In this document: piece by piece, positions 9,423-17,148 of the stretch
Position numbering within the stretch: position 1 is the first letter of the stretch
Layout: each line of letters opens with the position of its first letter
IMG/VR virus record: IMGVR_UViG_3300032030_000013
DNA from: a virus
Lineage: Duplodnaviria; Heunggongvirae; Uroviricota; Caudoviricetes
Strand: one strand, 5' to 3'
Length of the DNA stretch: 39,433 bases
The notes under the pieces: model-generated
The model's database searches: none
The model's input: only the letters and a program-made list of their open reading frames with translations
Told to the model about the DNA's origin: nothing
Program-made: the position numbers and the translations under genes

Positions 9423-10595
9423 TTATTTTAAGTTTTCTTCAATTTCTGAGATCATTTTCTTTACTTTCTGTACATATTCCTTAGCATCACGTATAGCTTC
9501 ATCTGATGAAGATGCATCATAATCCCAGTCTTTAAATTTTTCTTCATCCCATTCTTCTCCCTTTTCTTCAGCACGTTTCTTATAACGTTCCTTTGTACGT
9601 TCTGAATCTCTCTTATATTTCATTGCCTTATAAAATTGTTCATAAGCATAAGATACATAACGCATAAGATCATCTAAGCTAAAACGTTGATCCATGTTTT
9701 CTGGTTTAGACATTACCTTTTGGAATAAAGCAACCACTTCATCATTAGTCTTTTTGATTTCATCAAATAAAATATTTGGATCTGATTGAAGTTTCTGTGC
9801 TTTAATTTCTTTTACCATTGCACGATAACGACCTTGCTGTTGCTTAAGAAGATCACGTAAACTTCTTTCATCAAGATTAACAACTCCCTTTTGAGATTCT
9901 TCACGTTCTTTATGAAGTACATCATAGTCTTTAACCATATCTTCTTTGATTTCAAGGAAATATATGTCTAATCCTGAAACAACATCAATAGCTTCATCAA
10001 GTTTTAATGAGCGTTCTCCATACTTATATTTAGTTGCAGTCTTTTCTTGTACACCAGATTTATATCCTGTTGTTGGGAAATAATATACTCTTACGTCTCC
10101 TAAAGTTTTTACATAACCTTTTATGAAACAAACAACATCTTTAGTTCCTGGTTTACAACAAATTACATCAGCCATTATTTTCTTTTGATATACAGATCTT
10201 AATAACTTAATGAATTTCTTATCCCAATCTTCAGAATCTGCTTCAAAATATTGGAAGTCATCATCTTTAATTTCTGACCATTTTAAACCACGAATACCTG
10301 TCTTTTTATTATTTCCATATCTTGATGTTTCTGTTAATGGACCAAATATAGAAGCAAAAGATTTAGCAGTTTTTGTTGGAGAATAACCACGTCCTTCTTC
10401 TTTATAACGTTTTTCTGCTGCTTTATCATTTTCAGCATGTTTAGATTCTGCGTCTTTAATAGCTTTTGCTAAACTAGTCAATATTGATGATTGAAAACTT
10501 TCTGTTATAAGTTCATCAGCAATTAAATTAACTGTTTCTAAGAATATTGCTCTATCACAAGAATATTCTGACATATATTCACATAATTGTATCAT
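9423..10595 (-). CDS. hypothetical protein (390 aa, helical C-terminus)
   Basis: Long ORF, phage-like codon use; no motif recognised. Confidence 0.85.
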   Translation of the reverse strand: MIQLCEYMSEYSCDRAIFLETVNLIADELITESFQSSILTSLAKAIKDAESKHAENDKAAEKRYKEEGRGYSPTKTAKSFASIFGPLTETSRYGNNKKTGIRGLKWSEIKDDDFQYFEADSEDWDKKFIKLLRSVYQKKIMADVICCKPGTKDVVCFIKGYVKTLGDVRVYYFPTTGYKSGVQEKTATKYKYGERSLKLDEAIDVVSGLDIYFLEIKEDMVKDYDVLHKEREESQKGVVNLDERSLRDLLKQQQGRYRAMVKEIKAQKLQSDPNILFDEIKKTNDEVVALFQKVMSKPENMDQRFSLDDLMRYVSYAYEQFYKAMKYKRDSERTKERYKKRAEEKGEEWDEEKFKDWDYDASSSDEAIRDAKEYVQKVKKMISEIEENLK

Positions 10596-12749: not shown

Positions 12750-12914
12750 ATATATAAAATCATCTTACACAGACTATTTCAAGTCATCCTTAACGCCATG
12801 AAACTAGAAGGTTCTATTTAAATAGAAATGGCATCCAACTGTTCTCCTCTCTGAATATCCATATTCTTTGCCATTAGAATATAGTTCTTTTCAGACCCTC
12901 AGATGATTTTATTG

Positions 12915-13265: not shown

Positions 13266-13414
13266 ATTATTCGGTTTTCCTTAGATCCGAAAACTTAGTT
13301 CCGTGTCACGCCATCTGAACCCTCGCCTATGCATACTTCCTATATAATATATATTACGTAATTCAATTATATAGTCATAGGATATTTCTTTAAAGAAATA
13401 ATCAAAGAAGTTTG

Positions 13415-13545
13415 TCGCGGAGGTTGGACTCGAACCAACATAATCTTTTTCCAAATAAAAGCGTGTATACCGAAGTAACTCTAATCTACAGCATTCATAT
13501 TGAAGCAACAGCGAATAAAGTATTAAAAAATTTCACCACTCCGCG
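13415..13545 (-). tRNA. tRNA (Gln TTG or Pro TGG register) with Y-module insertion (~13472..13528) in the D loop
   Basis: CGCGGAG/CTCCGCG-A; GTGAAATT[insert ending AGAGTTACTTC]GGTATACAC. Confidence 0.75.
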
Positions 13546-16044: not shown

Positions 16045-16332
16045 ATTAATATAAATCTTTCCAAATCCTCATACTTAATATTTCCTCTACATTCCGCGTA
16101 GGCGAGGTACTTCTTGGCGCCTTAAGTACAAGATAGCTCTAAGATAATGAAAACAACTATAGGACACGTGTTAAATTAAAATAATTGTTTTCAGAGCTTA
16201 CTCAACCAATGTTGAGCTTAAATAGTTTTAGACTTAGATACACGTCTGGGACTTTTACTAAATTTACTCTAAGTCTTTATAATATAAATTACAACATATT
16301 TTCCATAGCATTTTTGGCTGTAATCTATATTG

Positions 16333-16407
16333 TGGGTCCGACTTGAGTTGAACAAGTGCCTTCGGATTTTCAGTCCGACGAGCGACAACCACCTACACCA
16401 CAGACCC
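16333..16407 (-). tRNA. tRNA-Phe(GAA)
   Basis: TCGGA-CTGAAAA-TCCGA. Confidence 0.9.
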
Positions 16408-16412
16408 AAAAT

Positions 16413-16553
16413 AAAATTATCGGAACAGCTATAAAAGTATAAATAAATATCGATTCTCTTGGATTCGAACCAAGGATTCAATTCTGGAAAAATTGCATTA
16501 AAACCACTTAATTAAAAATCGTGAAGTAACTCTTATATACACCAGATAATTTT
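16413..16553 (-). ncRNA. Y-RNA-like module enclosing a complete tRNA-Gly(TCC)-like cloverleaf
   Basis: TATAAGAGT/ACTTTTATA stem; inside CGATTTT/AGAATCG, ATTA-AGTGGTTT-TAAT, CAATT-TTTCCAG-AATTG, CTTGG-TTCGAAT-CCAAG. Confidence 0.75.
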
Positions 16554-16554
16554 G

Positions 16555-16641
16555 AGGCCAGGGTGGGATTTGAACCCACGCGGGAATTTCTTCCAATAGT
16601 TTTGCAGACTACTCTCATCAACCAGACTCGGGCACCTGACC
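16555..16641 (-). tRNA. tRNA-Cys(GCA) with long variable arm
   Basis: CT-GCA-AA, U73, extra arm GGAA-GAAA-TTCC. Confidence 0.88.
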
Positions 16642-16648
16642 AAATATA

Positions 16649-16824
16649 AAATCTACAGAATTAATGAATAAAGTAATTATTAGATAAAAATTTCGTGTAT
16701 ACCAATTTCACCACCGCGGCACGATGCCATGGACGGGACTCGAACCCGTATTCCATTTACTGGAAAAATTTTGAGAAGTTATCAGCTTTCTTATGAAGTA
16801 ACTCTATCCTACACTAGTAGATTT
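16649..16824 (-). ncRNA. YrlA-like Y RNA (circularly permuted tRNA-Leu-like domain)
   Basis: Order: module 5' strand - variable arm - T arm - acceptor closed by a loop (CCATGGCA-TCG-TGCCGCGG) - D arm - module 3' strand. Confidence 0.8.
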
Positions 16825-16829
16825 GTTTG

Positions 16830-16915
16830 CGGAGAAAGTAGGTGTCGATCCCAATCCGTTTCACCGAACGAGCTGTTTTCAAGACAGTCCTGCGGGCCGC
16901 CGCAGTTCATTCTCC
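16830..16915 (-). tRNA. tRNA-Ser(TGA), 8/4 (allo/Sec-like) fold
   Basis: 8-bp acceptor, 6-bp D stem with 4-nt loop (CTGCGG-CGGC-CCGCAG), 4-bp T stem, long arm, G73. Confidence 0.8.
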
Positions 16916-17148
16916 AATTTAAATAGATATAAGAATAATTATATTGCACCCATGCCCAGTCAAGAATTGAACTATCCTAGTTGCGGTTTCGAACCACGCT
17001 TCAAATTATTAATCACACCAGTGATACAGACATATATCTATTTTAATATTCAAATATTGCAATCATTCAACATTCTGCCACCCAGGCAGTTCAAACCCAG
17101 GGAAAGATTTAAACTTCTGACTCCTTACGGATATATTTGAATATTTAG

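Follow-up and report, generated by a model that had tools for sequence, protein, structure and literature searches.

Two putative Ro60-associated Y RNAs in a phage tRNA array: one stem module around a permuted tRNA-like domain or a complete linear tRNA

Bacterial Y RNAs of the YrlA type carry the motif GNCGAA(N0-1)G near the 5′ end, a proposed contact for Rsr (PMC4201824), and in their canonical form have neither an anticodon loop nor a free CCA end (10.1101/312249). The 7-bp acceptor stem of Mycobacterium smegmatis YrlA is cut by RNase P in vivo and gains CCA, and both halves stay bound to Rsr (PMC4201824). Ro60 genes accompanied by Y-like RNAs are already known from phages (PMC4201824, PMC12135203, PMC7824862), with a further candidate in PMC12282133. 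What the tRNA-like domain does in bacterial Y RNAs has been a standing question since 2014. Here, we analyzed a 39,433-nt stretch of a Caudoviricetes virus (IMG/VR record IMGVR_UViG_3300032030_000013; hereafter the window), in which two minus-strand RNAs, RNA A and RNA B, lie close together within a tRNA array and share a two-helix handle (Table 1). We consider it probable, with some reserve, that both are Ro60-associated Y RNAs and that RNA B, which holds a complete linear tRNA, is a Ro60-tethered tRNA mimic rather than a decoding tRNA. They apparently belong to a large, undescribed branch of the Y RNAs, and this Ro60-associated family spans uncultivated large phages and at least one bacterial metagenome-assembled genome (MAG). 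A literature search that left most subscription journals outside its reach found no Y RNA with a complete linear tRNA and no case of a handle recurring along a tRNA array.

Read on the minus strand, both RNAs start and finish with the same handle, in which an outer helix, P1, is followed by an asymmetric internal loop with the 5′-side consensus U-R-G-U-G-W-A, a 9-bp inner helix, P2, and the word UACUUC. The 5′ side of the loop contains UGUA in RNA A and RNA B alike, the P2 strands are NNNNAGAGU and ACUUUNNNN, and UACUUCA comes next. The sequence AGAGTTACTTCA occurs eight times in the window at no more than one mismatch, exclusively on the minus strand of the array, and scans of viral contigs returned many further copies of the handle. 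A covariance model of the handle matches RNA B at 29.9 bits (E = 3e-4) and RNA A as a partial match. The same model gives weak matches at 1926-1981 (12.2 bits) and 13386-13502 (−) (22.8 bits), both of which look decayed. A profile hidden Markov model of the 3′ half of the handle was too weak to be useful (13 matches), and the two halves were matched by complementarity instead.

The structure of the handle is carried by comparison among copies. In an end-to-end alignment of 18 short-loop copies, chosen by a filter that did not use P1, RNAalifold predicts both P1 and P2, a pair counter gives 96.6% paired, a value equaled in none of 500 shuffles, and P1 shows compensatory change at nine of its nine pairs. 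A larger set comprises 112 distinct copies adjacent to genes for TROVE-domain (Ro60) proteins, gathered by the covariance model and therefore placed in a model-fitted alignment that leans toward the structure; here all 18 pairs show compensatory change with both sides varying, 95.1% of positions are paired as opposed to 57.9% after shuffling and roughly 35-48% when the partner strand is slid, and the covariation score is 0.908 versus 0.21. P1, the internal loop and P2 thus make up the long end-to-end stem with a conserved loop or bulge that characterizes Y RNAs. An invariant G·U pair in P2 of the 18-copy set, together with a strict strand bias in which every copy has the same orientation, favors an RNA over a DNA repeat. 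Folding energies are weak (z = -1.45 for RNA A and -1.33 for RNA B) and single out neither RNA; since the cloverleaf of RNA B also lies above the minimum free energy (MFE) fold, the case rests on the comparative evidence.

The handle is linked to Ro60 by its position in other genomes. Among 14 full records bearing a handle element, four encode TROVE open reading frames (ORFs) with a vWA domain, and in G004, as in the complete, terminally repeated genome G013, a handle copy lies immediately upstream of the TROVE ORF. We then searched 80 phage loci encoding relatives of this Ro60 (37-100% identity) with the handle covariance model at E ≤ 0.01 and obtained 141 matches in 65 of the loci, every one of them on the strand of the gene; the opposite strand of the same 80 loci gave none. 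The matches are mostly no more than a few hundred bases from the gene. Most of these handles stand in tandem, 6-12 nt past the stop codon, or just upstream of the start, and many follow the ORF in tandem with no tRNA close by. Many single-motif matches in viral contigs also proved genuine, as the contigs encode the Ro60. The loop word of RNA A, UAGUGUA, is the most frequent among the TROVE-adjacent copies (36 of 112), and that of RNA B, UGGUGUA, is also present. Moreover, a 435-kb phage contig that carries the same RNA B (L134, in which the flanking bases differ) and a homologue of RNA A encodes this Ro60 as well (L148). The handle module extends beyond phages: a scan of bacterial genomes gave 20 matches, of which four, at three loci, passed the handle model, and a Terracidiphilus sp. 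MAG carries, possibly within a prophage, two tandem handles (L236:3689-3948, +) that precede a same-strand TROVE ORF by about 875 nt. Because the stem covaries and lies on the gene's strand beside TROVE genes in 65 of 80 loci, the handle is very probably the Y RNA module of this Ro60 clade, which bears out an earlier sequence-only reading of the window insofar as it saw Y RNAs here.

RNA A is YrlA-like in architecture. Its apex presents, in order, a variable arm, a T arm, an acceptor stem closed by a loop and a D arm, so that the YrlA succession of T arm, loop-closed acceptor and D arm recognized in the sequence-only reading is present, and the pairing is kept in homologues. P1 and P2, along with the variable and T arms and the acceptor hairpin, all form in the MFE fold, and pairing of the arms was scored across three homologues (L094, which equals L107; L017; and L134). 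The class II variable arm that had also been proposed is clear in the window copy from both sequence and fold, and can be made out by eye in L094 and L134; its conservation is less secure, at 68.8% paired on a poor alignment misaligned by indels. An additional pairing, AAAAUUU with AAAUUUU, would fit the YrlA arrangement, in which the stem that binds Ro60 runs on from the anticodon stem, but has poor support in the homologues (53.6% paired, again on an indel-misaligned alignment). The description of RNA A as canonical YrlA did not survive. The Rfam YrlA model scores it at 17.5 bits (16684-16772, −) against a gathering threshold of 69, in an alignment that shifts the register of the acceptor and D arms, and leaves the copies beside TROVE genes in L121 and L137 without a match at E ≤ 1. 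In the two window copies the motif GNCGAA(N0-1)G is absent, replaced by AGUGUAG in RNA A and GGUGUAU in RNA B. The handle loop looks related to the Ro60-binding motif of YrlA but not identical to it, since exact GGCGAA occurs in just two of the 112 distinct TROVE-adjacent copies.

RNA B differs from RNA A in having a linear tRNA with an open acceptor inside the handle. ARAGORN calls this core tRNA-Gly(tcc), and RF00005 matches it at 52.6 bits over model positions 1-71, well above the 29 bits expected of a tRNA with a complete cloverleaf; the complete linear cloverleaf with anticodon UCC is thus upheld. Contrary to what had been thought, the tRNA is separated from the Y stem at both ends by unpaired linkers, of 7 nt on the 5′ side (UACUUCA, 16528-16522) and 11 nt on the 3′ side (16449-16439). 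For the same reason the proposal that the 3′ end is blocked applies to the unprocessed transcript only, as the linkers leave the tRNA accessible to RNase P and RNase Z. The cloverleaf is AU-rich and is not the MFE fold, lying 4.4 kcal/mol above it (-20.7 versus -25.1 kcal/mol). Three free tRNA-Gly genes in the array, two UCC and one GCC, all have G1:C72, C2:G71 and U73, positions that textbook rules count as determinants for bacterial GlyRS; RNA B departs from this pattern at each of them and has 29% GC as compared with 46-54% in the free genes. Only one of the 53 array tRNAs encodes CCA; maturation of the array tRNAs must accordingly involve RNase P, endonucleolytic cleavage on the 3′ side and the addition of CCA.

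Homologues of RNA B show how the two parts of the molecule have changed. L062 and L134 have the same RNA B sequence, flanking bases aside, and L110 and L005 have a diverged version in which the handle is changed at one outermost P1 base and the tRNA and linkers at about 10 positions. The outer three acceptor pairs, CGA/UCG in RNA B, are ACU/AGU in the diverged version, and a T-stem U-A pair is C-G there, as read by hand rather than with the pair counter because MAFFT mis-registered the 3′ acceptor strand of L110 and L005. The cloverleaf is therefore kept in these homologues by compensatory changes, contrary to the loss that would have counted against the sequence-only reading, and RNA B retains U8, A14, G18G19, the T loop, U33 and A37; the anticodon in L005 is UUC. 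Another phage tRNA array holds a further handle around a linear tRNA, one unrelated to that of RNA B (L078:12644-12781, −), with a 7-bp acceptor stem made entirely of A-U pairs, an encoded ACCA, a CAG anticodon and a class I body. Since the two examples are unrelated, the linear topology appears to be rare and to have arisen more than once. Two observations touch on these elements. A 256-nt block around RNA B (16324-16579) is 98.4% identical to L062:11145-11400, from a 236-kb contig, with flanks at about 66-71%, which suggests that the RNA B cassette was either recently exchanged between phages or is very strongly constrained. In L078, ARAGORN calls an amber-reading tRNA-Pyl(cta) at 12819-12891, near the handle-tRNA.

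The apex varies widely across the family. Of 94 distinct elements in a census, 62 have a short loop, at least 17 are permuted and just two, RNA B and the one in L078, hold a linear tRNA. The long TROVE-adjacent copies examined are permuted tRNA modules. About nine of the 12 class I members have a hairpin of 4-5 bp with a 7-nt anticodon-type loop directly after UACUUC, the closing pair of which covaries (A-U, C-G, U-A), and two pair in the canonical YrlA manner. Because the hairpin directly follows UACUUC, the handle would enter near tRNA position 26 with all four arms kept, unlike canonical YrlA. The anticodons of class I members vary by copy (UGU, GAU, GUU, ACG, GUG and UGG; L026, L131, L201, L210, L191, L130, L121, L218 and others). 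An anticodon loop displayed while the acceptor end is unavailable is thus common in the handle family, which makes the decoy idea reasonable at the level of the family. A further topology is seen at 512-646 (−) and in L087, L079, L068, L094, L105, L011, L072 and L134, in which the D, anticodon and T arms are intact and the acceptor end is shut by a hairpin formed partly from a conserved UACUUCU; ARAGORN labels these elements as tRNAs for Thr, Ser or Cys, with anticodons that differ inside each subfamily. Matches in L139 and L140 to a pattern for the long Leu-like form were chance matches. The Rfam tRNA model gives borderline scores on L121:3128-3238 (−) and L137:2430-2486 (−), at 27.8 and 29.5 bits. 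In L121, which is matched at full length, P2 falls on the acceptor stem of the model, UA on U8-A9, CUUC on a D-stem strand and the final A on A14, a hint that the handle itself derives from a tRNA whose acceptor stem was lengthened. As a general account of P2 and UA-CUUC-A as a remnant acceptor stem and D arm, this stays an idea, as one copy aligns in this way at 27.8 bits and the pattern fails across copies.

The two RNAs sit in a tightly packed tRNA array of about 17.5 kb, all on the minus strand, with 53 genes by ARAGORN and 50 matches by Rfam, where tRNAs were the only families to pass the gathering threshold. RNA B begins directly past the 3′ end of tRNA-Cys(GCA) at 16554 and stops 5 nt short of the 5′ end of tRNA-Phe at 16407, and RNA A is 5-7 nt from its neighbors on either side, so that processing of tRNA-Cys would set one end of each RNA. 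Contig L134 retains the order of RNA A, a tRNA-sized gap and RNA B. No convincing promoter or terminator bracketing RNA A or RNA B was seen on the minus strand of the window, where the strongest sigma-70-like site (17849-17820) is upstream of the entire array, and both RNAs are therefore probably parts of one polycistronic tRNA transcript. Their almost exact fit to the spacers between tRNAs makes it probable that RNase P and 3′ processing of the neighboring tRNAs generate the ends of both RNAs. A class II tRNA-like gene at 16830-16916 (−), missed by ARAGORN, scores 43.8 bits with the Rfam tRNA-Sec model (cut-off 47), has the anticodon loop CUUGAAA (UGA, not the UCA of Sec) and is about 77% identical to stretches of Prevotella Lak megaphages. 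Two ORFs inside the array, of 390 aa (9423-10595, −) and 261 aa (1015-1800, −), have no Pfam match; the region of the former has a DNA identity of 74-78% in L001 and L105. Past the array in window coordinates are phage-like ORFs, including a 5′-3′ exonuclease domain and a metallophosphoesterase. No close cultured phage was found; tblastn with a 1643-aa ORF gave no match and blastn gave single tRNAs only.

Table 1. Features of RNA A, RNA B and the intervening tRNA gene (window coordinates)
Feature	Position	Strand	Basis
RNA A, handle plus permuted tRNA-Leu-like module	16649..16824	-	sequence, MFE, covariation with three homologues, partial handle-model match
RNA A handle 5′ half: P1 16824-16817, loop UGUA 16813-16810, P2 16809-16801, UACUUCA 16800-16794	16794..16824	-	
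RNA A class II variable arm (UUCCA-GUAAA-UGGAA)	16751..16765	-	sequence, MFE
RNA A T arm (ACGGG-UUCGAGU-CCCGU)	16733..16749	-	100% paired, 2 compensatory pairs
RNA A acceptor-like hairpin, UCG loop	16714..16732	-	87.5% paired, 2 compensatory pairs
RNA A D arm (GUG-AAAUUGGUAUA-CAC), tRNA-Leu-like	16695..16711	-	100% paired, 1 compensatory pair
RNA A handle 3′ half: P2 16674-16666, 3′ loop 16665-16659, P1 16656-16649	16649..16674	-	
tRNA-Cys(GCA), between RNA A and RNA B	16554..16641	-	ARAGORN, Rfam
RNA B, handle around a complete linear tRNA (P1 pairs 16553-16545 plus 16543-16542 with 16423-16413; P2 pairs 16537-16529 with 16438-16430)	16413..16553	-	ARAGORN, Rfam, handle model, homologues
RNA B handle 5′ half: P1 16553-16545, bulge U 16544, GG 16543-16542, loop UGUA 16541-16538, P2 16537-16529, UACUUCA 16528-16522	16522..16553	-	
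RNA B tRNA body, anticodon UCC, C1:G72, G2:C71, A73, CCA not encoded, 29% GC	16450..16521	-	ARAGORN, RF00005
RNA B 3′ trailer 16449-16439; P2 16438-16430, loop GCUGUU 16429-16424, CC 16423-16422, P1 16421-16413	16413..16449	-	

The evidence on RNA B leans toward a non-decoding tRNA mimic, because the handle is more conserved than the tRNA that it encloses, the tRNA is redundant in the array and atypical at C1:G72, G2:C71 and A73, its GC content is low, its anticodon has become UUC in L005, and L078 provides a parallel. The alternative that RNA B is an ordinary or caged pre-tRNA, from which RNase P and RNase Z would free a 72-nt tRNA that acquires CCA, is charged and decodes GGA and GGG, is unlikely but deserves serious weight; the handle would then be mere leader-trailer pairing, or would be left over as a two-strand Ro60 ligand. 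The well-scoring complete cloverleaf is what such a precursor would have, with a 7-bp acceptor stem, unpaired linkers and compensatory changes that preserve the acceptor and T stems, and the array tRNAs nearly all lack an encoded CCA and need the same enzymes; the L078 example even encodes its CCA. This explanation must nevertheless accommodate two free tRNA-Gly(UCC) genes that make RNA B redundant, an acceptor and discriminator pattern different from that of all three free tRNA-Gly genes, the 29% GC and non-MFE cloverleaf, and an anticodon that shifts to UUC beneath a better conserved handle. Moreover, the sister topologies have a covalently closed acceptor end, so charging cannot be the purpose of the family. 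The same low GC, drifting anticodon, atypical identity and non-MFE cloverleaf could mark a passenger in decay, namely a tRNA that entered a short-form Y RNA by recombination into its apical loop and is now functionless in itself, and the predominance of the short-loop form (62 of 94) and the 98% identity to L062 across 256 nt between flanks of about 70%, which suggests cassette exchange, would fit such an origin. We regard decay as improbable, as four compensatory pairs keep the cloverleaf, the residues U8, A14, G18G19, U33 and A37 and the T loop are retained, and L078 is a second, independent linear example.

Explanations that dispense with Ro60, or with RNA altogether, fare worse. Stems that fill the inter-tRNA spacers so tightly, lack an evident promoter or terminator of their own and occur in several phage records with no detectable Ro60 gene might be processing or insulating elements of the polycistronic transcript, such as RNase III sites. 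We hold this to be very improbable: all 141 matches beside TROVE genes are on the gene's strand, many of them following the ORF as tandem copies away from any tRNA, and a plain duplex cleavage site leaves the asymmetric loop and UACUUC unexplained. A DNA-level repeat, such as a recombination site or the end of a mobile element, would account for the many copies per array and the signs of cassette exchange, but is scarcely credible given the strict strand bias, a conserved G·U that would be C·A on the other strand, covariation that passes through G·U intermediates and tRNA-type arms in the insert. Several findings weigh against the interpretation of RNA A and RNA B as Ro60-associated Y RNAs with RNA B as a mimic. 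The adjacency to Ro60 holds family-wide, but no TROVE ORF is present in the 39-kb window, and searches of G001 (83% complete) and G007 (92% complete) turned up no Ro60, even when the profile used was specific to the clade; binding of the handle to Ro60 is proposed from genomic linkage. The Rfam YrlA score is far under threshold and the YrlA loop motif is missing from both RNAs. No linear tRNA occurs among the TROVE-adjacent long copies examined, the identity-element argument against charging of RNA B draws on textbook rules, and the sequence of RNA B, with its unpaired linkers, 7-bp acceptor and canonical T loop, presents no bar to release by RNase P and RNase Z, enzymes that all other array tRNAs require.

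Taking RNA A and RNA B as Ro60-associated Y RNAs, we propose that the Ro60/Rsr ring of the phage (or of its host) most likely docks on the handle, much as on the stem of known Y RNAs, and that the apex, be it a simple loop, a tRNA in permuted order or, in rare cases, an entire linear one, most likely offers a tRNA shape to a tRNA-binding partner. RNA B may be nicked at C1 by RNase P, with the pieces joined by the 20 bp of P1 and P2; the precedent of M. smegmatis YrlA (PMC4201824) is the reason to think that RNA B may act as a nicked, two-piece ribonucleoprotein. We speculate further that phages could use the handle as a transferable tag for Ro60 docking, attached to tRNAs in several topologies, making RNA B a whole tRNA held on the Ro60 ring as bait or as a store, although we judge this rather unlikely. 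As bait, it would draw host anticodon nucleases or other tRNA-targeting defenses onto a Ro60-exonuclease or repair complex; as a store, it would yield its tRNA to RNase P and RNase Z only once Ro60 lets go. If true, this would tie Ro60 biology directly to the conflict between phage and host over tRNAs and give the tRNA-like domain of Y RNAs a concrete job. The handle family is natural variation bearing on the question of that domain and makes its role testable: one Ro60-linked handle lacks a tRNA in some forms, bears a permuted one in others (anticodon hairpin present or absent) and encloses an entire linear tRNA in yet others, and is placed sometimes beside a Ro60 gene and sometimes many-fold within a tRNA array. 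Additionally, the Rfam YrlA model misses a large phage branch of Y RNAs, and some of the "tRNA genes" annotated in phage arrays are parts of Y RNAs.

Two of the relevant comparisons concern tRNAs themselves. The core of RNA B resembles a canonical tRNA (RF00005) in its full cloverleaf, 7-bp acceptor, canonical T loop, G18G19, U33 and 7-nt anticodon loop, and differs in sitting within a 20-bp handle, in its low GC and atypical acceptor and discriminator, and in an anticodon that varies among homologues. Circularly permuted tRNA genes, as presented in 10.1101/312249 with reference to Soma et al. 2007, share with the permuted modules the order T arm, acceptor, D arm and a loop-joined acceptor; according to that secondary account, their precursors are matured by a splicing endonuclease and a ligase into working tRNAs. 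The joining stem here is instead a conserved Ro60-linked module, and no such maturation is indicated.

Among Ro60 ligands, the Yrl1 and Yrl2 RNAs of Thermus phage phiLo, with their protein phiRo60 (PMC12135203), also pair a phage Ro60 with Y-like RNAs that adjoin its gene. Binding was shown biochemically in that system; the phiLo RNAs were chosen by a CGAA motif, are not described as tRNA-like and have no tRNA array setting. The other parallel is YrlA (RF02553; PMC4201824; 10.1101/312249), whose phage examples come from mycobacteriophages, CcrColossus, Bacillus phage G and phiLo. Handle RNAs and YrlA share a stem formed by pairing of the ends, a conserved loop motif on its 5′ strand, genes beside Ro60/TROVE (for the handle, at family level), often in tandem, and, in RNA A, an apex that mimics a tRNA through a T arm, a loop-closed acceptor and a D arm. 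The handle departs from YrlA in its loop, U-R-G-U-G-W-A rather than GNCGAA(N0-1)G, in escaping the Rfam model, which gives 17.5 bits on RNA A and nothing on TROVE-adjacent copies, and in having a second conserved helix followed by UACUUC and copies scattered repeatedly through a tRNA array. Many handle modules, unlike YrlA, also retain the anticodon hairpin, and RNA B encloses a complete linear tRNA with an open acceptor.
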